Shown: positions 1 to 61,607 of the stretch, one piece after another | Numbering within the stretch: position 1 is the stretch's first letter | How the letters are laid out: each line of letters starts with the position of its first letter | Source: a virus | Taxonomy: Duplodnaviria; Heunggongvirae; Uroviricota; Caudoviricetes | IMG/VR virus record: IMGVR_UViG_2740892442_000004 | Direction: 5' to 3' (one strand) | DNA: 64,000 bases | The notes under the pieces: generated by a model | Told to the model about the DNA's origin: nothing | Seen by the model: the letters and a program-made list of their open reading frames with translations, nothing else | Databases searched by the model: none | Made by a program: the position numbers and the translations under genes

Positions 1-3000
1 GCGGAAGGTGAAAAAAGCGTTGGCATTAAGCTAACAGCAAAGAAGACCGGCGTTTATTACCGTAGCTACGAGCTGAAGCTGCCTAAGCCTGGACGCGCAT
101 ACAAGGTTCGTGTAGTCCGTATTACCGATGATAACAGTAGCCAGTATCTCTATAACGATACATGGGTGGATTCAATCGGGGAAATTGTCGATACACCGAT
201 GAACTATCCAAACTCTGTTTTGGTTGGATTGAAGGTAAACTCTGAGCAATTCGGCAGCACCATGCCATCTCGCTCTTATCTGGTGCGTGGCCTAAAAATT
301 CGAGTACCTTCAAACTATAACGAGTCCAGTAACACTTACGCTGGGGTATGGGATGGCACTTTTAAGCTGTTGTCTTCTTCGAACCCCGCGTGGATTCTCT
401 TTGATTTGCTGACCAATGCTCGATATGGCCTTGGTCAGTATGTGTCGGAATCTATGATTGACCTTGGCCAGTTGTACCAGATTGGTCGATATTGTGACGA
501 GGAGGTCGATGATGGCTTTGGTGGCAAAGAGAAACGCTTTGCAATCAATACGCAGATCACCAGTCGACAGGACGCATACCGACTAATTCAGGATATTGCT
601 GGAGCATTCCGCGGCATGGTGTTTTGGGCTGGTGGGATGGTTAACATCATGCAGGATAGCCCATCAGATCCGGTAATGATGTTTACCAACTCTAACGTCA
701 AAGATGGATTGTTTACCTATAAAGGTTCTGCGCGTAAAGATCGCCCATCCGTTGCGCTCGTAACCTACAACAACAAGGAGGACGGTTATAAGCAAAACAT
801 CGAGTACGTTGAAGATCAGGACGCAATGCGCCGTTATGGTGAGCGTAAGACAGAAGTCGTAGCATTTGGCTGTACAAGCCGAGGGCAGGCTCACCGAGTT
901 GGTTTGTGGCTTTTATATACCGCCAGAATGGAGTCGGATGTAATTACATTTACTGCCGGCTTAGACGCGTCATTTCTGATGCCTGGTGAAACCGTTCTGA
1001 TTCAGAACAAATATCGCGCAGGCAAACGTAACTCAGGTCGAATTGTGGCGTTTACCAAAAACAGCGTCACACTCGATGCGCCTGTGTCGTTAGCCAAAGG
1101 CGGCTGCTTTATTCGAATACTGAATCAGGAAGGCAAAATCGTTGAACGCGATGTTCTTGAAACTGGCGAAAATATAACAAAAGTTACGTTTTCAAAAGCC
1201 CTGTCTTCGGCTGAAACGCCTGTTTTGAACGGCGTCTGGACTATTACAGAACCAGACCTCGAACCTATGCGCGTTCGCATCGTTAACATCGCGCAGGGGG
1301 AAACGCCGGGTAGCTTTGACATCACCGCTGTTGAGAACAATCCGTCTAAATATGAGGCGATCGACAATGGTGCAACGCTTATCCCGCAAAATACGACGGT
1401 ATTGGACCCGACTTACTCCAAGCCGTCTAATTTGCAAATCACCGAAGGGACTTATCTCTCAAGCCCTGGCAACCTGTCAGTAAAACTGACTGCAACATGG
1501 GAAGGGAAATCTCCAGAGTATTGGATCAGTTGGCGACGTTCTGATGAAAACAATGTATCGAACTGGCAATCGGCGCGTGTAACCGAAGAGCAATACGAAA
1601 TCGTTAATGTTGCGGAGAATGGACGCTACGACTTCCAGCTGTATGCGGTTTCATTCAACGGTAAAAAAACAGAGATTATCAGTACCGTTTATCAGGTGCT
1701 GGGCACAATGACACCGCCAGATGCCCCAACGTCATTAACGGCCGTTGGAGACTATCGTAATGTGATACTGAATTGGGTTAATCCAGATTCGGTAGACCTT
1801 GATCACATTAATGTTTACGCGTCCCAGACCAATAATCTGGATACGGCGAAACTGATCGCAGAGTCTGCAAGCACCACCTTTACACATGCTGGTCTTGGGG
1901 ATAGCGAAACGTGGTATTACTGGGTTCGAGCATCGAACAAGCGAGGTATGTTAAGTCCTCCGAACTCAAACTTGGGTACAGAGGCGACAACTCGCGATGT
2001 ACTGTCGTTCCTGACTGGCAAAATTACATCTTCCGAGCTTGGTCAGGCTCTGCTTGAGGACATCAACAGCAAAGCCTCTCAAGAAGCCGTTGACGAGTTA
2101 AATGAGCATATCAACCAGAGCGTCGAATCTTTGGAGGGGGCGGTAAACGACGTTAAGGAAGATATAGCTGAATTAGATAAGCAGTTCAGCGATAACCTCG
2201 CGGATTTTGAAATAAAATTCAACGAGCGTAGCGATGCTTTGGAGAACGCACAAACCGAGCTTAAAGGTGAGGTTTCGGCAACGATCGACAAGGTCAATGA
2301 AGCGTTTGAAAAAATTGATGCTACTGATGCTGCAATTGTTGAAATCGAAAATACCGTATCTGAACACGATAAAGCTCTCGCTAATACAGTCGAGGCAATA
2401 AAGGCTGCAAGAGATGAAGCGGCGGCTCTTATTGCTAAGGAAAGCGAGGCTCGTGTTGAAGGCGATGCTGCAAACGCTAAACAACTGGAAGTGTTGCAGT
2501 CAACGGTAGAGGAAAGCTCCGCTGCCGTTGAAGAAATGAAAAAGACGGTTGCAGAGGTCGATCGTGCAAGTGCAGAACTGACTACGAACATTGAGGCGTT
2601 AGCCAAAACAAATATTGACCTGGCTCTTCGTCAAGATGAAGACCAGCACAAGCAGATGGTCAATAACGCGAAGATCGCAACAACACAGAAAACCTTTGCT
2701 GATGATATGTCTGCAATGGCTACGAAGGTTGAAGAAATTCGCGTAGAAATTGGCGAAGACATTAAGGCCAGTATTCTGGAAGAGTCCACCGCGCGTGCCG
2801 ATGGCGATGAAGCGTTAGCAAAGCGTGTCACTCAGCTGCAATCTAAGTTTGAAGGAGATATCAGCGCGGCGATTAGTACAGAACAGGAGGCTCGTACATC
2901 TGCCGATGAAGCTTTGACGAAACAAATAACTCAGCTTGAGTCGAAAGTAAGCAACGATATTGTCGCAGCCATTAAGGAAGAGCAAGAAGCCCGAGCAACG

Positions 3001-4215
3001 GAAGATTCGGCTCTGGCAAGCCAGATCACCCAACTTCAGGCAAAAGTTGATGATGATATTTCTGCTGCAATACGCAGTGAGCAGGAGGCTCGTGCGAGCG
3101 GAGACTCTGCGTTAGCTAAACAAATAAACCAGCTTCAAGCAAAGGTTGACGGTGATATATCCGCCGCCATCACTCAGGAGCAGGAGGCCAGAGCAAGTGC
3201 TGACGAGGCGCTCTCACGAGAAATTAACAGCCTGCGAGCACAGACCGGAACTGATATTGCCGCAGCGGTTGCTGTAGAGACAAAGGCAAGGACTGATGCC
3301 GATAGTGCATTGTCCACTCAGATTACGTCTCTTACAGCAAAAGCTAATGATCTCGAGGCATCTCTTGCCAGAGAAACAACGGCTCGTGCAGATGGTGATA
3401 CCGCTTTAACAAAAGAGGTTTCAAGTTTAAAAGCACAGACTGCGAAAGATATTAGTGCGGCCGTTGCAGTTGAAACGCAGGCTCGAACTGATGCTGACTC
3501 GGCGTTGTCATCTCAGATCACCAAGCTGACCTCTCAATACAAAGAGGATATTAAAGCGGCTGTAGCAACCGAAACGAAAACGCGTACAGAGCAAGATGCT
3601 GCATTGGCGACTCAAATCACAAACTTAGAGTCTCAAACGGCAGCCAACATTTCCGCGGCGGTAACAACTGAAACGACAGCGAGAACGCAGGCAGATAATG
3701 CTCTGAGTGGGCGAATCGATACTCTGAAAGCAGAGGTGGATGGAAATACCGCGATAATTCAACAGCAGGCAACAGCTATTGCTGATACCAACAAAAAAGT
3801 ATCAACCGCGTGGACGTTGAAAATGGAGACTTCAACGAGCGGAGGGCAGAAGTATGTTGCCGGTATTGCGCTTGGTATTGACACCACTGGGCTATCTCAG
3901 TTTTTGGTTCAGGCGGACAGGTTTGGTTTGGTCAACTCTGTTAACGGGAAGATCACAACGCCATTTGTTATCGAAAACAGTATCGCCTATATGAATGGAG
4001 CGTATATCAAGGATGGCACAATCACCAATGCAAAAGTAGGCGATCTGCAATCTACCAATTTTGTTAGCGGTAGATCTGGATGGCGGTTCGGCAAAAATGG
4101 AACGCTTGAGATCAACGGTAATAGCGGCGGCAATGGGCGATTGGTTATAAATGGTCAGCGGATTGACGTTTATGACGATAACAACGTCCTACGAGTAAGA
4201 ATTGGCCGTCTGTGA
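1..4215 (+). CDS. Tail tip / host-specificity protein, lambda gpJ-like (5' end cut by window edge)
   Basis: Frame is open from nt 1 into the 166-4215 ORF. Segment WDGTFKLLSSSNPAWILFDLLTNARYGLGQY...AFGCTSRGQAHRVGLWLLYT matches the conserved core of lambda J-type central fibre proteins (recalled, not searched). C-terminal third is tandem 33-36 aa repeats. Confidence 0.8.
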   Translation, partial: AEGEKSVGIKLTAKKTGVYYRSYELKLPKPGRAYKVRVVRITDDNSSQYLYNDTWVDSIGEIVDTPMNYPNSVLVGLKVNSEQFGSTMPSRSYLVRGLKIRVPSNYNESSNTYAGVWDGTFKLLSSSNPAWILFDLLTNARYGLGQYVSESMIDLGQLYQIGRYCDEEVDDGFGGKEKRFAINTQITSRQDAYRLIQDIAGAFRGMVFWAGGMVNIMQDSPSDPVMMFTNSNVKDGLFTYKGSARKDRPSVALVTYNNKEDGYKQNIEYVEDQDAMRRYGERKTEVVAFGCTSRGQAHRVGLWLLYTARMESDVITFTAGLDASFLMPGETVLIQNKYRAGKRNSGRIVAFTKNSVTLDAPVSLAKGGCFIRILNQEGKIVERDVLETGENITKVTFSKALSSAETPVLNGVWTITEPDLEPMRVRIVNIAQGETPGSFDITAVENNPSKYEAIDNGATLIPQNTTVLDPTYSKPSNLQITEGTYLSSPGNLSVKLTATWEGKSPEYWISWRRSDENNVSNWQSARVTEEQYEIVNVAENGRYDFQLYAVSFNGKKTEIISTVYQVLGTMTPPDAPTSLTAVGDYRNVILNWVNPDSVDLDHINVYASQTNNLDTAKLIAESASTTFTHAGLGDSETWYYWVRASNKRGMLSPPNSNLGTEATTRDVLSFLTGKITSSELGQALLEDINSKASQEAVDELNEHINQSVESLEGAVNDVKEDIAELDKQFSDNLADFEIKFNERSDALENAQTELKGEVSATIDKVNEAFEKIDATDAAIVEIENTVSEHDKALANTVEAIKAARDEAAALIAKESEARVEGDAANAKQLEVLQSTVEESSAAVEEMKKTVAEVDRASAELTTNIEALAKTNIDLALRQDEDQHKQMVNNAKIATTQKTFADDMSAMATKVEEIRVEIGEDIKASILEESTARADGDEALAKRVTQLQSKFEGDISAAISTEQEARTSADEALTKQITQLESKVSNDIVAAIKEEQEARATEDSALASQITQLQAKVDDDISAAIRSEQEARASGDSALAKQINQLQAKVDGDISAAITQEQEARASADEALSREINSLRAQTGTDIAAAVAVETKARTDADSALSTQITSLTAKANDLEASLARETTARADGDTALTKEVSSLKAQTAKDISAAVAVETQARTDADSALSSQITKLTSQYKEDIKAAVATETKTRTEQDAALATQITNLESQTAANISAAVTTETTARTQADNALSGRIDTLKAEVDGNTAIIQQQATAIADTNKKVSTAWTLKMETSTSGGQKYVAGIALGIDTTGLSQFLVQADRFGLVNSVNGKITTPFVIENSIAYMNGAYIKDGTITNAKVGDLQSTNFVSGRSGWRFGKNGTLEINGNSGGNGRLVINGQRIDVYDDNNVLRVRIGRL
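2855..3745 (+). repeat. Tandem ~99-108 bp in-frame repeats (about 9 units) inside the J-like gene
   Basis: Units begin GATAT(T/C) at about 2855, 2947, 3055, 3154, 3253, 3439, 3547, 3646; they encode DISAAI..EQEAR(A/T)SADxAL..QI(T/N)QLQAKVD coiled-coil-like units. Confidence 0.7.
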
Positions 4216-4397
4216 TGGTGGAAAAAAATTTTTATATCGGTAAAAATAGGTAAGTATTTACCTAATGGCGGGCAAGGATAGCCCGCCAAATCAAGGAGCA
4301 TATTCAACATGTGGTACAGGGAAGGTACTATCACATTTACACAGGGTAGCAATACTCTGGTTGGGGCAGGGACAGCTGGAACGTAACAGCTAATGGT

Positions 4398-33938: not shown

Positions 33939-34212
33939 TAAAGAATTATGGCGCTTGTTGAGGAAGTCACTCCTCTTACGCACTTTGTTTTGCCATGCCG
34001 GCAGTTAGCTTCTGCCTTTGACTATTCATGCGGCAACCCCGCATTTCGCCACAATGGGCAATTCACTTTTATGGAATAAACTGGCCGTTGTGTCGATTTA
34101 ATTAGCATGGCCTTACCATGCTAATTTATTCAACTTGTACAATCCTACAAATCTATCCACTCAGGCTTACACCGTCTTCGTTATTGTAGAAATGAGGATC
34201 ATCAGCGTTGAA

Positions 34213-34428
34213 TCAGCTTAGAGCAACGACATTTGCTGCTGCTGGGCCTTTAGCCCCATTCTCGATAGAGAATTCGACCTGCTGGCCTTCTTCCAAAGTG
34301 CGGAAATTATTACTCTGAATTGCCGAAAAATGTACAAAAACATCTTTACTGCCATCAGCAGGAGAAATAAAGCCAAAGCCTTTATCAGAGTTAAACCATT
34401 TTACTAAACCAGTCATTTTATTAGACAT
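34213..34428 (-). CDS. Cold-shock protein, CspA family
   Basis: [38 protein letters not shown]... with RNP motifs; start ATG 34428 with AAGAAGG ribosome-binding site; long 5' leader. Confidence 0.85.
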
Positions 34429-34757
34429 AGATATTACCTTCTTAATTTTGTGAGCCACATAGTGCGGCGAGAATTTGATCTGTATAGATTGGGACTTACT
34501 TAGGCACTTAAGGAGGAGACTCACGAAGAAGGGAAATCAGAAGATAACACTGAACTGAGACTGCTTTACTAAAACTGCTTACATAAGGTCTGTCTTGCAA
34601 ACCAACGATGCTATTAACGCATACCCCTTCTTTTCATGCAACCTTTATTTTTCAAAGATAACTAATTTTTGTCACCATTGGTTTAGTAAACGTTAACGAA
34701 CCAGACGATGCCAGACACCTTTACAGAGAACAGATGCCCGCCAATTGGCGGGCATCA

Positions 34758-42566: not shown

Positions 42567-42976
42567 CACCGCTGACAGCATACACAATCAACTACCGCTG
42601 ATAGCATATCGAGAGTCTATCTCACCGCTCACAGCATACTTTACTCGATTTTTTACCGCTGACAGCATACTTAAGACATTGCATGAATAATGTGTACCGG
42701 TATGGGTATAACCAGAACAAAATTACCGCTGGCAGCATACGAAGGTCTGACATATACCATTAATTACCGCTGATAGCATATCCAAACTGGAATGCACTCT
42801 TCGAGGTTAGTAACCACTGGGGAGGTATGACAGAGCATTGAGTGGTGATAGATGATTTACCGCCCACAGCATACGTTCATCTCACTATACCGCTGGTAGC
42901 ATATATTTAACCGTTTACAGCATACTTTTCAGAAAAATAGCCGCTGATAGCATACATTTCACCGCTGACAGCATAT
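42567..42976. repeat. Iteron array, 11 copies of a 17-bp repeat, downstream of repA (incA-like)
   Basis: (T/C)ACCGCTGACAGCATAC and variants at 42567, 42593, 42623, 42654, 42724, 42765, 42858, 42888, 42909, 42939, 42960, with irregular spacing. Confidence 0.85.
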
Positions 42977-59421: not shown

Positions 59422-60015
59422 ATGATTGCAGCCGAAAAAATCAAACAGCGAAAGCGCGACAACTCTCTTCGTGACCTCTGGAGAACACCTGACTGGCTGT
59501 TTTCTGCCATTCAACGTTATCTTGGAGTGACATTTGATGTTGACGTTGCCTGCAACAAGGACAATGCAAAGCTGCCTAATTTCATAGGCGTTGAGCGTGA
59601 TGCTTTGAAATCTGAATGGGGACAGCCAGGTACAATTGCCTTCCTCAATCCACCCTACTCCAAAATCTCCCCCTGGATTGATGCGGCTATACGTGAGCAG
59701 GCTCGCGGAGTTACAACAGTGATGCTAATTCCTCAATCCCTAGATACAAAGTGGTATGAGCGTGCAACAGAGTGTGCGAATGAGACGATTATTCTGTCTG
59801 GTGGCCGCGTAGCGTTTGTCGAGCCTGACGTCAATCTGGGTCAGGTAGAAGTAAACATCAACCCAGGTGGCAGTATGCTCGTTGTTTTTCGAGGATTCTG
59901 TCAGGACGCTGGGCACTCTATAAGCAAGATCCCTTTGGACGTCATGAAAAGTCTGGGAGGGTATGATCCTGCGAATGTGATCAGGAAAAAAAGACCATCA
60001 AAGAAGGCTGCTTAG
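59422..60015 (+). CDS. Phage-type DNA N6-adenine methyltransferase (orphan, no cognate endonuclease seen)
   Basis: Catalytic motif NPPY (AFLNPPYSK) in a ~197-aa protein; preceded by palindromic ATAGGTATTTACTTACCTAT motif. Confidence 0.75.
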   Translation: MIAAEKIKQRKRDNSLRDLWRTPDWLFSAIQRYLGVTFDVDVACNKDNAKLPNFIGVERDALKSEWGQPGTIAFLNPPYSKISPWIDAAIREQARGVTTVMLIPQSLDTKWYERATECANETIILSGGRVAFVEPDVNLGQVEVNINPGGSMLVVFRGFCQDAGHSISKIPLDVMKSLGGYDPANVIRKKRPSKKAA

Positions 60016-60036
60016 TTTGTTCTGGCGTCTGTAATT

Positions 60037-60096
60037 AGCCTGCTTCTGTATATATAAATAACTACATATTAATTATTAATATACGGAAGCAGGCTG
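60037..60096 (+). repeat. About 60-bp palindrome, copy 2 of the element at 13064-13120
   Basis: AGCCTGCTTCTGTATATATAAATA...ATATACGGAAGCAGGCT; same arms and same single A/G asymmetry as copy 1; likely long-stem terminator after the methyltransferase gene. Confidence 0.6.
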
Positions 60097-60176
60097 TTTT
60101 GTATCAGAGACTCCAGACCTGAACATCACTACAGAATCCACTAGAACCCCTTCCCAGACGCTTTAAAATCGATTTT

Positions 60177-60431
60177 ATGAATCACTTTAAGGAAACTAAC
60201 ATGTCATACCCGACTAATGTCGTTGCGCTCGTAGAGAGCGATTTTCTGGCCCAGGCCCGTGAAATGATGAAAGACCGCGAGCAGGCTTTCAACTTGTACG
60301 AATGGGCAATTAAGTGCTTGCATCTTGGGGAGCATCGCGAACTTGTTGAACAGCTTTTAGGTGAGTTGATCAACGAGGTGTTTGCCTTGAATGTTCAACT
60401 ACATGGTCGAGAAAATAATCAATCGAAATGA
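60177..60431 (+). CDS. Hypothetical small protein
   Basis: 84-aa ORF with AAGGAAACTAACATG context. Confidence 0.4.
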   Translation: MNHFKETNMSYPTNVVALVESDFLAQAREMMKDREQAFNLYEWAIKCLHLGEHRELVEQLLGELINEVFALNVQLHGRENNQSK

Positions 60432-60439
60432 TAGATAAG

Positions 60440-61016
60440 TACAAACTATTCATAAAATGAATTGTAAGTGCTAAGATCTGATAGTTTCCAGTCGTAGACT
60501 GGAGACTCGACCTGATGGGTGGGGGTAAGCGTCACTGGCGTCAGGTTTAAAAAAGCTCACTACCAGCGTAGAACCGGTGCCGTTTAGGTGTCGGGGAAGG
60601 GGGAACCAAAGTGAGCGGAGACAAGGGTCACTTTATGATTGTCGAGTCTGGGGTGTTTCGAGAGGTTGAATCCAGTACTCCCCTTCATAAAGTGTGGGAA
60701 GATCTCGGTTCTGGGGTGCTGTCATCCATAACTTCCCAAGTCTAAGCTGGCAGTAGACTTAGGCCATAACTTTTCAGGTTATGAAACGACCAGGTTGGTG
60801 AGGGATTTTTATACTCACCTCCCTGGGAGAGTATTACCTGAAAAGACAACCTCTCACTTCGTTCGAGGTGAACTTCACTCACTTCGTTCGTTCAGTTCAG
60901 GTTTATAAAAACCTGTTCTGGGAAGTAATTTGTTTATTTTAATAATTATTAACACGCACGCGTGTGCGCACGCGCGAGGAAAAAAAATCGGCGCGGCGCT
61001 TGATTCAGGAGTTTAT
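60440..61016. other. About 580-bp ORF-free, hairpin-dense region with an alternating CG/CA tract; candidate structured RNA or cis element
   Basis: No ORF of 60 aa or more on either strand apart from a spurious extension of rnhA; local hairpins (CCAGTC-gta-GACTGG, GGTGAG..CTCACC), long-range complements (GACTCGAC/GTCGAGTC, GAAGGGG/CCCCTTC), direct repeat CACTTCGTTCG x2, tract ACACGCACGCGTGTGCGCACGCGCG at 60952-60978. Confidence 0.3.
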
Positions 61017-61607
61017 ATGACGACGAAGACACCAGCCCGATCGCAAGAAAAAACTCGCAAAAAAGCCAAAAACAAAAATTCTCCCCGCACCAATTCCACA
61101 ACGCCTGTCGTAGAGTTCAATCCCCAGCTTAAAACCGTGAAAATCTTCAGTGATGGCTCTTGCCTTAAAAATCCGGGTGGCCCGGGCGGTTACGGTATCG
61201 TTCTTCAGTATCGTGGAGAGGAACGCGAGTTCTCAGATGGTTTTCATAGCACCACCAATAACCGCATGGAGATGATGGGGGCACTTATCGGGCTGGAGCG
61301 TTTGAAATATCCATGCAACGTTATTTTGCACTCTGATAGCCAGTATCTGAAAAACGGCATGACACAGTGGATGAAATGGTGGAAACGCAATGGATGGGTG
61401 ACTTCTGACAAAAAACCGGTAAAGAATGTTGATCTGTGGAAGCGTCTGGATGAGGCTGCAAGTCGACATAATGTTCGCTGGAAGTGGGTTAAAGGTCACG
61501 CCGGGCATCGTGAAAATGAAATATGTGATCGACTCGCGAAGATCGCAGCTTTTTCCGCAGCAGATATGCCTCACAAGAAAGATATTGGTTTTGTTTACAA
61601 CAAGTAG
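61017..61607 (+). CDS. rnhA: Ribonuclease HI with about 40-aa basic N-terminal extension
   Basis: [49 protein letters not shown]...[23 protein letters not shown]...[22 protein letters not shown] parallels E. coli RNase HI; AGGAG ribosome-binding site before ATG 61017. Confidence 0.85.

Follow-up and report, generated by a model that had tools for sequence, protein, structure and literature searches.

A 585-bp gap at positions 60432–61016 of an SSU5/pHCM2-like phage-plasmid, the longest ORF-free stretch of the 64-kb window (the whole stretch of DNA analysed here), very probably holds the gene for a structured plus-strand RNA. The fold of this RNA is conserved through compensatory changes, and on one strand; the region is non-coding, with no conserved reading frame, and its transcript has an abundance independent of that of its neighbours. 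The RNA is also independent of the adjoining RNase HI gene, rnhA, which occupies a variable slot. We lean, with moderate confidence, towards a discrete non-coding RNA of about 455 nt, encoded on the plus strand at roughly 60484–60940, standing alone and acting in trans. An earlier note on this DNA had listed a large structured non-coding RNA among several readings of the gap, and this is the reading that covariation, a strand-specific covariance-model (CM) signal, a footprinted promoter and public RNA-seq all support.

The gap lies directly before rnhA in an otherwise tightly packed genome, as the earlier note had described. ORFs of at least 60 amino acids are absent from both strands between 60432 and 60929, and the single ORF extending to 60930 is rnhA itself, mechanically lengthened to a TTG codon; its ATG is at 61017. 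No relative examined carries a real gene annotation in the gap, and the PGAP pipeline, which makes use of Rfam, places nothing there in 233 E. coli records. Upstream is orf84 (60177–60431, plus strand; phrog_5343, function not known), annotated in relatives in a 76-amino-acid form starting at 60201 and syntenic with the RNA in nearly all of them. The tRNA cluster of the element is 38 kb distant from the RNA gene. Elements of this family have a repA-type IncFIB replicon (PMC9169379), and the element also encodes partition genes and its own replisome of helicase, primase and polymerase.

Folded as RNA, the plus strand of the gap reaches −212.5 kcal/mol (z = −6.6) and the minus strand a z-score of −5.3, with no shuffled sequence equalling either. 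The local hairpins reported previously are perfect or near-perfect (for example, 60483–93/60497–507 and 60629–38/60685–94), the long-range complementary segments are present (for example, 60503–11/60641–49 and 60660–68/60847–55) and the direct repeat is real and slightly longer than first described (CTCACTTCGTTCG at 60853–65 and 60878–90). Thermodynamic folding combined with conservation across relatives had been proposed as a check of the structured-RNA reading; the gap folds far better than its shuffles, and compensatory changes support the fold.

The fold comprises three domains, each described by its own CM. The 5′ domain (60505–60617, plus strand) consists of P2, a long G-rich hairpin (60509–47), an A-rich linker and P3 (60555–61/60610–16), which encloses the hairpin P4 (60574–94). 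The central domain (60618–60768, plus strand) contains P6 (60629–94), P7 (60695–701/60732–38, with an inner hairpin at 60714–27) and P8 (60740–64), as well as segments that are invariant across the family, AGAGACAAGGG, AUUGUCGA, UCCCCUU, GUGGGAAGAYCUCG and UAACUUCCCAA. The 3′ domain (60766–60926, plus strand) is formed by the long hairpin P9 (60770–845), P11 (60861–89), which carries two copies of the direct repeat CUCACUUCGUUCG, and P12 (60892–921). Two helices of the 3′ domain, P5 (60618–28/60849–55) and P10 (60856–60/60922–26), would close this arrangement on the same strand; they show no variation in the alignment and have a low probability in the single-sequence ensemble, and for these reasons P5 and P10 themselves, the global architecture and the branched terminator discussed below are all tentative.

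Changes on both sides of a pair occur in 21 of 48 pairs of the central domain (model R1, alignment A4), compared with 3.5 ± 1.6 in shuffles and 2–4 in slid controls, in 14 of 33 pairs of the 5′ domain (model R3, alignment A9; 3.8 ± 1.2 in shuffles, 0–2 in slid controls, 98% of cells paired) and in 6 of 48 pairs of the 3′ domain (model R2, alignment A7; 1.5 in shuffles), counts that are somewhat inflated by the fitting of CM-derived alignments to the model. Over the whole region, compensated cells number 92 versus 22. The helices hold many conserved G–U pairs, one-sided changes lead to G–U or A–U, and the 3′-domain CM scores the plus strand at about 200 bits versus about 35 bits for the minus strand. 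A 4-bp long-range pairing between 60505–08 and the rnhA Shine–Dalgarno sequence, present in an alifold consensus, was rejected as too short and lineage-correlated (86% paired). Resemblances noted by eye to CsrB, 6S RNA, T-loops and anti-Shine–Dalgarno elements were dropped because the motifs are not kept in the divergent homologues L160 and L164.

The core of the RNA (60506 to about 60930) is 87–93% identical across Klebsiella, Enterobacter, Salmonella and Citrobacter elements and almost invariant at 60640–60900, whereas the adjacent RNase H protein is just 77–84% identical; conservation of the core exceeds that of the genes on either side. Its carriers are hundreds of plasmids in E. coli, Klebsiella, Enterobacter, Citrobacter and Salmonella, including pHCM2 of S. 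Typhi CT18, and the RNA occurs in 687 plasmid records, in 232 of 5426 complete E. coli genomes (about 4%), in 74 IMG/VR contigs located by an exact 24-mer search and in 52 metagenome contigs located by a two-anchor degenerate pattern search, all of the latter being close relatives by CM score. With one genome per species, a 21-mer search returned only two Kluyvera and one Buttiauxella. The 5426 E. coli genomes contain no similarity to it in the host chromosome beyond carried phage-plasmids.

More divergent homologues (L160, L164 and L168) were reached through relatives of the upstream protein. L160 is unseen by blastn, and yet the central-domain model R1 scores it at 80.7 bits (E = 5 × 10−18); its 5′ domain reaches 17 bits and its 3′ domain is weakly recovered, at 9.9 bits with filters off. 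Two further loci, L162 and L163, share the synteny and have a structured gap of 712 nt, but none of the three CMs matches them and they are therefore not counted in the family. Together with a natural deletion variant (L167), these non-homologous sequences suggest that the element can be carried without the RNA. Searched against Rfam 15 (4227 models), positions 60432–61016 give no match at gathering thresholds and, at E ≤ 10, only chance-level microRNA and viral fragments far below threshold; the RNA matches no catalogued RNA family.

A putative sigma-70-type promoter precedes the RNA on the plus strand (60449–60477), with a −35 hexamer TTCATA (60449–54), a 17-bp spacer and a TGn-extended −10 hexamer TAAGAT (60472–77), from which a transcription start near 60484 is predicted. 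A consensus promoter scan places the window's own hexamers below threshold and does not call this promoter; the phylogenetic footprint does pick it out, as in most lineages the −35 (TTyAmn) and −10 (TAnAAT) hexamers are fixed at 17-bp spacing around freely varying spacer sequence. The most divergent lineage, L160, has the same geometry (TTTACT/17/TATGAT), and in L164 the −35 is hard to identify. Adjoining the −35 hexamer is an operator-like site (60431–60449), a degenerate copy, ATAGATAAGTACAAACTAT, of the 20-bp palindrome ATAGGTAAGTAnTTACCTAT; relatives have near-perfect palindromes at the same position, and the motif, which probably binds a regulator, recurs 11 times across the window versus 1.5 expected, mostly just upstream of genes. 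Downstream, the 5′-terminal hairpin P1 (60483–60507, plus strand; AGUUUCCAGUC-GUA-GACUGGAGACU) has a counterpart at this place in every lineage, 6–9 nt past the −10, although the sequence of the stem changes entirely from one lineage to the next.

The probable 3′ end is a U-rich tract, UUUGUUUAUUUU (60929–60940, plus strand), which with P10–P12 tentatively resembles a branched intrinsic terminator. Read by eye, divergent lineages also set a helix against a U-run (CCAACUC/GAGUUGG followed by AUUUUUU in L160, a hairpin followed by UCUUUU in L164), a reading with which the CM's own alignment of L160 disagrees; a simple consensus terminator scan does not call a terminator at 60929–60940.

Evidence of transcription comes from public RNA-seq of LF82 (GSE154648) and its phage Cyrano (OV696614.1), which is 97% identical to the window and in which an annotated 44-amino-acid ORF, CYRAN_81, falls within the RNA core (window positions 60611–60745); the RNA gene as a whole corresponds to about 78530–78985 of Cyrano. 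In our search for work on non-coding RNAs, origins or transcriptomes of SSU5/pHCM2 elements, the LF82/Cyrano study was the one informative paper. In LB, CYRAN_81 reaches 117 fpkm, compared with 9.5 for the orf84 homologue CYRAN_80 and 8.4 for rnhA, a signal about 12-fold over the upstream gene and about 14-fold over rnhA (PMC9928086); the re-analysed RNA-seq, which may not be strand-specific, gives a single count over 135 nt of the core. Across all ten samples, CYRAN_81 has log2 values of 6.8–10.35 and its neighbours 2.6–5.8 (PMC9928086, Table 1 and S1 Table). In the Cyrano lysogen it is expressed at about the level of the putative repressor (CYRAN_45), CYRAN_80 is at background and the neighbouring replication genes are silent, and expression extends to lysogens within macrophages (PMC9928086). 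Part of the excess in reads could stem from a stable fragment processed out of a longer transcript.

Downstream of the RNA, an AT-rich spacer (60927–60951), the length and sequence of which differ between lineages, may hold a promoter of the downstream slot, to judge from a TAATAT-like −10 in relatives. It is followed, outside the conserved RNA, by a 25-nt alternating purine–pyrimidine CG/CA tract, ACACGCACGCGTGTGCGCACGCGCG (60952–60976). Its length and nature were correctly described before, with an end coordinate (60978) that was 2 too high; and although it had been placed immediately 5′ of the rnhA ribosome-binding site, it is near that site rather than directly before it, because some 30 nt separate it from the Shine–Dalgarno AGGAG (61007–11). 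The tract is the window's longest purine–pyrimidine alternation (the next is 14) and exceeds the maximum of 22 in 200 first-order Markov simulations. Every relative has a tract of the CG/CA kind, variable in order and length (18–28 nt), with a 10-nt deletion in L044 and an expansion in L069, and no covariation was found for an RNA hairpin within it (helices 20 and 21). This unusual and retained tract may be the Z-DNA-prone regulatory site that the earlier note had suggested. Alignments then delimit AGG, an A-run (A8 here, A5–A9 in relatives) and TCGGCGCGGCGC (60977–60999), ahead of rnhA itself (61017–61607, plus strand; PF00075), which has a basic N-terminal extension of about 40 amino acids.

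In rnhA-less relatives, likeness to the rnhA-type sequence stops just past the A-run, and another shared block, TCGCCCATCGTAATGTCTTCAATGTGCCAAAAGC, comes next. The RNA is retained where rnhA is replaced or lost (L136, L148, L149, L157 and L168), the replacements being a TIR-domain gene, a Gabija-like pair, other ORFs and an IS3 element. RNase H is therefore not an obligate partner of the RNA, which relatives keep while swapping rnhA for defence or other cargo; the RNA, CG tract and A-run travel as a unit ahead of different cargo. Contigs of 57–111 kb represent natural variants in which the locus has gained an insertion or suffered a deletion. Unrelated phage RNase H genes (38–49% identity) have tightly packed upstream genes and no comparable gap.

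Four other accounts of the locus have to be set against a stand-alone RNA. That the gap encodes the CYRAN_81 protein, or is the remnant of a lost gene, is scarcely tenable. The E. coli, Salmonella and Enterobacter lineages do have an unbroken 44-amino-acid GTG ORF, and the RNA-seq signal was counted over this annotated unit; a 387-amino-acid metallophosphoesterase ORF of Buttiauxella gaviniae also runs into the same frame, but this fusion is a junction in a remnant without any neighbouring genes. In the Klebsiella lineages L003 and L058, and in L069, L168 and L164, a stop or frameshift breaks the 44-amino-acid ORF while the helices persist through compensatory changes, indel lengths between homologues are not divisible by three, and conservation above the flanking genes is the opposite of decay. 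By the earlier note's own terms, a protein encoded here by homologous phages would refute its reading; the one ORF ever annotated here, CYRAN_81, is a mis-annotation of the RNA core and does not do so. Nearly as improbable is a purely DNA-level element, in which the DNA itself, as cruciforms or Z-DNA, would function in packaging, in recombination or as a binding site for proteins, with the transcript as a by-product. The CG/CA tract, the most extreme alternation of the window, does sit at the left border of the cargo-exchange slot, with the operator-like palindrome at the left end of the gap, but both lie outside the conserved 425-nt core. The many conserved G–U pairs of the helices would be C–A mismatches on the other strand, and poor pairs in DNA; moreover, the CM signal is strongly strand-asymmetric and the region is transcribed well above its neighbours.

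A cis-acting leader or attenuator is a more serious contender, although we consider it unlikely. Here the 3′ domain would terminate transcription by default, an alternative pairing would allow read-through into rnhA or other cargo, and the short RNA would be the terminated 'off' product. The segment CUUCCCA (60732–38) can pair with UGGGAAG either at 60695–701, forming P7, or at 60919–25 in the terminator-like 3′ domain; neither CUUCCCA nor the first UGGGAAG varies, and the 3′ copy is kept except in L164 (GGGAAC). Forcing the alternative helix costs only 1.5 kcal/mol, and its ensemble probability is about 0.23 versus about 0.67 for P7. The joint movement of RNA, CG tract and A-run ahead of different cargo would also suit a leader, as would a terminated to read-through ratio of about 14:1, which is like that of riboswitch loci. 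Against this, the cargo of L148, L157 and L168 is on the opposite strand, and therefore cannot be expressed by read-through, while the RNA is still conserved. The alternative helix has no covariation, because the switch segments never vary; 455 nt and about eleven helices are far above the size of known attenuators and riboswitches; Rfam yields no riboswitch or leader match; and the AT-rich spacer may carry a separate promoter for the slot.

The lytic origin with RNA-primed initiation that the earlier note had tied to RNase H found no positive evidence, and we regard it as quite improbable. An RNA II-like pre-primer would hybridize near the AT-rich spacer, CG tract and A-run, and its end, cut by phage or host RNase H, would prime DNA synthesis as at ColE1 or at oriF/oriG of T4. 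ColE1 RNA II is a conserved, structured RNA of about 550 nt, with an RNA-to-DNA transition at ...ACGCGCAGAAAAAAAGGATC..., a likeness that serves as a lead only. Here, some 500 nt separate the promoter from a downstream A-run situated just after the GC-rich stretch ACGCGCGAGGAAAAAAAATCGG, the RNA 5′ domain contains G-runs (GGGUGGGGG and GGGGAAGGGGG), an AT-rich spacer comes after the RNA, rnhA adjoins in most relatives, and we found no mapped lytic origin of SSU5-type elements in the literature. RNA abundance in Cyrano has fallen at least 14-fold by rnhA, a drop that cleavage at an origin would give too. Against a pre-primer, natural relatives that retain the RNA have replaced or lost rnhA, unrelated RNase H phages have no such gap, and the terminator-like domain and U-tract lie ahead of the CG/CA tract, 40 nt before the A-run. 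There is no RNA I-type antisense promoter, the only minus-strand promoter-like site in the gap (60490–60461) pointing away from the RNA, and the Rfam RNAI model has no match. GC skew keeps its sign at the locus, the second G-run is missing in L160, the RNA is expressed in lysogens at putative-repressor level while nearby replication genes are silent, and the element has its own Rep-type plasmid replicon, Par genes, helicase, primase and polymerase.

For the stand-alone RNA, we propose that host RNA polymerase initiates at the sigma-70-type promoter, where a regulator could act through the adjoining palindrome, that the transcript would start with P1 as a protective 5′ hairpin and fold into three domains with about eleven helices, and that it would stop at the U-tract behind the branched 3′ domain. 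In the plasmid prophage, the product would build up to levels well above those of the flanking mRNAs. Its most likely mode of action is as RNA itself, together with a partner protein (for which it could be scaffold or decoy, or with which it could form a ribonucleoprotein), and not by antisense pairing; this assignment is an argument by exclusion, and a search of the rest of the 64-kb window for antisense targets gave only chance-level complementarity. The CG/CA tract, A-run and rnhA would lie outside the RNA, as the start of the downstream variable gene slot.

Among known systems, GOLLD, ROOL, OLE, raiA and HEARO are likewise non-coding RNAs of more than 400 nt with many covariation-supported helices and very strong conservation, and GOLLD and ROOL are, like this RNA, often carried by temperate phages with a function that cannot be deduced from context. 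In contrast to these RNAs, the present one has no Rfam 15 match, is confined to one group of Enterobacteriaceae phage-plasmids, lies away from the tRNA cluster, and has a recognizable, putative sigma-70 promoter and lysogen expression. With RNA II of ColE1/pMB1 it shares G-runs and Enterobacteriaceae hosts and probably a conserved structured transcript of about 0.5 kb from a constitutive-type promoter, and in both a GC-rich stretch and an A-run come after the RNA, here with an RNase H gene too. It does not, however, resemble ColE1/pMB1 RNA II in sequence or by CM and lacks an antisense RNA I gene; a terminator-like end comes before the A-run, relatives can do without rnhA, and the element brings its own replisome and an initiator-type replicon, with no skew or marker evidence for initiation at the locus.

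The immunity RNAs of phage-plasmids and satellites, c4 of P1/P7, CI of P4 and CA of N15, are similarly encoded by plasmid-prophages and present in the lysogen, and the present genome, like P1, appears to use dispersed operators; those RNAs, however, at only about 70–100 nt, are cut out of an operon leader and recognize sites in that operon by short complementary stretches, whereas this RNA is about 455 nt and has no complementary target in the window. Terminated riboswitch and attenuator leaders offer a short structured RNA at about 14 times the level of the downstream gene and mutually exclusive pairings at a terminator-like region, both seen here, but this RNA is two to four times larger, matches no known aptamer and precedes a downstream gene that is variable and sometimes on the opposite strand.

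It is rare for a bacterial non-coding RNA to exceed 400 nt and to have an elaborate fold backed by covariation, and most such RNAs have opened new biology. This one sits in a very common phage-plasmid family, members of which carry antibiotic-resistance genes (PMC9600943, PMC12217456), where annotation pipelines overlook it or label it a 44-amino-acid hypothetical protein. Two mis-annotations are corrected here, CYRAN_81 and the over-extended start of SSU5_090, and the alignments behind the three CMs could seed an Rfam-style family. The RNA also marks the left border of a slot that exchanges RNase H for anti-phage defence genes, among them the TIR-domain gene and the Gabija-like pair. More speculatively, and with less confidence than we attach to the RNA as such, it may represent a new class of large structured RNA specific to SSU5/pHCM2-type phage-plasmids, in the size and complexity range of OLE, ROOL and GOLLD, that the lysogen produces and that, in concert with a dedicated protein or some cellular partner, controls a life-cycle decision, be it maintenance, lysis–lysogeny or expression of the adjacent defence/accessory slot. 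In its most exotic version, this RNA would be an RNA II-like primer for a second origin, dependent on RNase H, within a phage. As a defined RNA, it provides a testable handle on the regulation of these phage-plasmids.

The gap between orf84 (60177..60431, +) and the RNase HI gene rnhA (61017..61607, +), at 60432–61016, is occupied by a previously uncatalogued gene for a large structured non-coding RNA. An earlier note had described this region as ORF-free, and indeed no ORF of at least 60 aa lies on either strand at 60432–60929, a longer run than any other of its kind in the window. The hairpins and long-range complementary segments it reported are present, the direct repeat CTCACTTCGTTCG lies at 60853 and again at 60878, and the alternating purine–pyrimidine tract of 25 nt was found at 60952–60976; no other in the window is longer than 14 nt, and none of 200 simulations produced one of this length. 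Folding of the gap gave −212.5 kcal/mol on the + strand (z = −6.6) and z = −5.3 on the − strand. A large structured RNA, one of the options then offered, is supported by compensatory pairs across lineages, a + strand covariance-model signal, a conserved core and RNA-seq from Cyrano, a 97%-identical phage-plasmid.

Nucleotide comparison of 60000–61100 assigns the region to the SSU5/pHCM2 group, with Escherichia phage-plasmids as the best matches: identity is 97–98% for CMS-2020a, PhiR41_1 and Cyrano, 83.5% for Salmonella phage SSU5 and about 80% for Klebsiella relatives. Queried alone, the gap matched 687 plasmid records, at least 80% of it being covered in 654 of them; by genus, the matches include Klebsiella (310), Escherichia (195), Enterobacter (88), Salmonella (49, among them pHCM2 of S. 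Typhi CT18), Citrobacter (24) and Cronobacter (10). The element is present in 232 of 5426 complete E. coli genomes, in single copy in each, always full length and never annotated, and the same phage-plasmid group accounts for all matches in IMG/VR (74), metagenomes (52) and species-representative genomes (3). One natural deletion (L167, 2001–2345) extends from within orf84 to position 441 of the gap query and has removed most of the RNA, and a contig of Buttiauxella gaviniae ATCC 51604 (L155:4830–6188) keeps only the 3′ two-thirds, at 96% identity. In a sister lineage from Logan assemblies (L162, 3726–4437, and L163), the same synteny leads from an orf84-like gene through a 712-nt gap to two tandem RNase H genes. 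That gap is non-homologous: it matched none of three covariance models of the RNA and, by blastn, nothing in PLSDB. It folds with z = −5.4, includes about 100 nt of extremely AT-rich sequence and may be an analogous element.

From 60506 onwards, the gap is 87–93% identical between genera and is nearly invariant at 60640–60900, and the RNase H protein beside it, at 77–84% identity in the same elements, falls below this core. The gap varies freely over its first 75 nt and in a short AT-rich spacer past 60930; with variable flanks around a conserved interior, the conserved block is a discrete unit of about 425 nt. Conservation analysis across relatives, as the earlier note had proposed, returned a multi-helix fold with compensatory changes far above shuffles: across the 53 distinct sequences given to RNAalifold, the fold has 98.3% of its cells paired and 92 compensated, where shuffles gave 22 ± 5 compensated cells and slid controls 8–35. 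As this set is shallow, distant relatives were sought through the upstream protein orf84, for which no known function was found, and contigs of its relatives gave three useful divergent sequences: L164 (82% nucleotide identity), L168 (a Buttiauxella plasmid) and L160, for which blastn yielded no alignment with the gap. One covariance model was built for each domain. The 5′ model (R3, alignment A9) scored 103 bits for L164 and 17 bits for L160, with 14 of 33 pairs changed on both sides (shuffles, 3.8; slid controls, 0–2); the central model (R1, A4) scored 160 and 80.7 bits (E = 5e-18), with 21 of 48 pairs so changed (3.5; 2–4); and the 3′ model (R2, A7) scored 76 bits and, with filters off, 9.9 bits, with 6 of 48 pairs changed (1.5; 1–2). 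Alignments fitted to such models lean somewhat toward structure; the margin above slid controls is still large. Conserved G–U pairs are numerous, one-sided substitutions give G–U or A–U, and with the 3′ model the + strand reaches about 200 bits, the − strand only about 35. Judged from these sequence patterns, the conserved core is an RNA read from the + strand. Its long-range helices P5 and P10 show zero variation and are improbable in the single-sequence ensemble; we regard the local helices as solid and their global arrangement as tentative.

An LF82 study re-analysed RNA-seq for Cyrano (PMC9928086), in which CYRAN_81, a 44-aa ‘hypothetical protein’ (OV696614.1, 78657–78791), corresponds to window 60611–60745, within the central domain. 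CYRAN_81 stands 12-fold over local background (PMC9928086, Table 1); in overnight LB it reaches 117 fpkm, compared with 9.5 for the orf84 equivalent CYRAN_80 and 8.4 for the RNase H gene CYRAN_82, and its log2 values are 6.8–10.35 over five conditions in duplicate, against 2.6–5.8 for the neighbours, peaking at 6 h in macrophages (PMC9928086, S1 Table). By these per-gene values, the RNA core greatly exceeds both flanks in abundance in the lysogen, with a level and profile similar to those of the putative repressor CYRAN_45. The small ‘hypothetical’ genes CYRAN_43 and CYRAN_40, 723-fold and 15-fold above background in the same lysogen, could hide ncRNAs or morons.

E. coli, Salmonella and Enterobacter lineages keep the 44-aa ORF intact; in Klebsiella (L003 and L058), L069, L168 and L164 it is interrupted by a stop or a frameshift. 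With the frame broken in these five sequences while the helices persist, we rejected a protein-coding reading, and with it the prospect that relatives encode a protein here. A 387-aa metallophosphoesterase ORF enters this frame in Buttiauxella gaviniae; because that locus is without all the usual neighbour genes and adjoins LysR and MFS genes, the fusion is a remnant junction. CYRAN_81 is probably an ORF call within the ncRNA, an annotation error in the public record. A further probable error is the RNase H start of SSU5_090 (NC_018843.1, 79147–79911), about 170 nt too far upstream, its annotated start region crossing the CG tract and the 3′ end of the RNA.

Simple consensus scans of the window called neither a promoter nor a terminator of the RNA, so we infer both ends. 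The predicted + strand promoter comprises TTCATA (60449–54) and TGcTAAGAT ending at 60477, with hexamers conserved across lineages: most carry TTyAmn 17 bp from TAnAAT around a spacer of variable sequence, L160 has TTTACT and TATGAT, and L164 has no clear −35 hexamer. The P1 hairpin (60483–60507), 6–9 nt past the −10, is present in every lineage with an entirely different stem sequence each time, as would be expected of a 5′-terminal stabilizing hairpin. Distally, domain P10–P12 is followed by UUUGUUUAUUUU at 60929–40, and L160 and L164 likewise set a helix against a U-run (by eye).

A degenerate copy (60431–60449) of a 20-bp palindrome, consensus approximately ATAGGTAAGTAnTTACCTAT, adjoins the −35. 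The window has 11 matches against 1.5 expected (at most three mismatches to the 14-nt core), with cores at 4249, 8459, 13207, 21216, 26240, 36548, 45162, 49846, 59394 and 61610. The copies, mostly just 5′ of genes, resemble a dispersed operator or promoter motif of the sort that phage P1 has in its scattered C1 operators. In the Cyrano lysogen, dam and the ORF following rnhA, which both have good copies upstream, are silent. Elsewhere in the window, an Rfam match to the cspA thermoregulator (34188–34606, −; 185.7 bits) before a CspA-like ORF (34213–34524, −) gives the phage-plasmid a cold-shock protein gene along with the long 5′ UTR that regulates it. Four tRNA genes (Asn-GTT, Tyr-GTA, Thr-TGT and Ser-TGA; 21985–22638) lie within a stretch of about 1.3 kb without an ORF of at least 75 aa, and further ORF-free gaps occur at 42588–42975 and 26209–26459.

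The CG/CA tract, about 12 nt past the U-tract and beyond the conserved core, is an element separate from the RNA. All relatives carry such a tract, 18–28 nt long and variable in order, with a 10-nt deletion in L044 and an expansion in L069; the A-run behind it varies from A5 to A9. Such variability suggests slippage and selection on a property, not a sequence. An RNA hairpin at the tract (helices 20 and 21) showed no covariation in the alignment; the tract may act within the 5′ UTR of the downstream gene, form Z-DNA or be a recombination-prone border.

The earlier note had also considered a lytic origin, and the geometry of the gap does resemble that of ColE1 RNA II, with about 500 nt from promoter to A-run, the A-run behind a GC-rich stretch, G-runs within the RNA and rnhA next door. 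Against this, the gap has no RNA I-type antisense gene and no covariance-model similarity; the terminator-like end lies upstream of the CG/CA tract, GC skew does not switch at the locus, relatives can dispense with rnhA, lysogens express the RNA while the adjoining replication genes stay silent, and the element carries its own repA replicon and full replisome. The origin reading is unsupported, and we consider it quite improbable. The main rival, a cis-acting read-through switch, draws on CUUCCCA (60732–38), which can pair with UGGGAAG at 60695–60701 or at 60919 (within 60919–60929). CUUCCCA and the first partner are invariant (segments 60728–60738 and 60695–60701); the 3′ copy, GGGAAC in L164, belongs to the terminator-like domain, which the alternative pairing would disrupt. 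In the modelled folds, two copies competing for CUUCCCA could form a conformational switch, and a cost of only 1.5 kcal/mol keeps read-through alive; several relatives whose cargo lies on the opposite strand speak against it, and we consider it doubtful. For the discrete ncRNA gene that we favour, complementarity to the rest of the window was not above chance, and segments that stay constant throughout the family, some of them paired and others unpaired (AGAGACAAGGG, AUUGUCGA, UCCCCUU, GUGGGAAGAYCUCG and UAACUUCCCAA), would point to tertiary structure or a protein partner, not antisense action.

The rnhA position (equivalent to window 60990–61580) is a cargo hotspot in relatives. Four of them have kept the RNA together with the CG tract and A-run but carry other genes in place of rnhA: L136 (1566–4034, reverse-complement orientation) has an 822-aa protein whose N terminus is TIR-like by eye, L148 a 182-aa lipoprotein-like ORF, L157 a pair of unknown ORFs on the other strand, and L149 what by eye is an IS3-type transposase gene. 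A C-terminal rnhA remnant of 24–29 residues is left in L136, L148 and L157, and several rnhA-less variants share the block TCGCCCATCGTAATGTCTTCAATGTGCCAAAAGC past the A-run. In L168 the slot (2895–4231) carries a Gabija-like pair, an OLD-TOPRIM ATPase and a UvrD-type helicase. No upstream gap was found at the RNase H genes of unrelated phages. Since rnhA is swapped while the RNA stays, and unrelated phage RNase H genes lack the gap, the RNA is neither a mere rnhA leader nor an RNase H accessory; its link with RNase H is loose, and it sits at the left edge of a slot for variable cargo.
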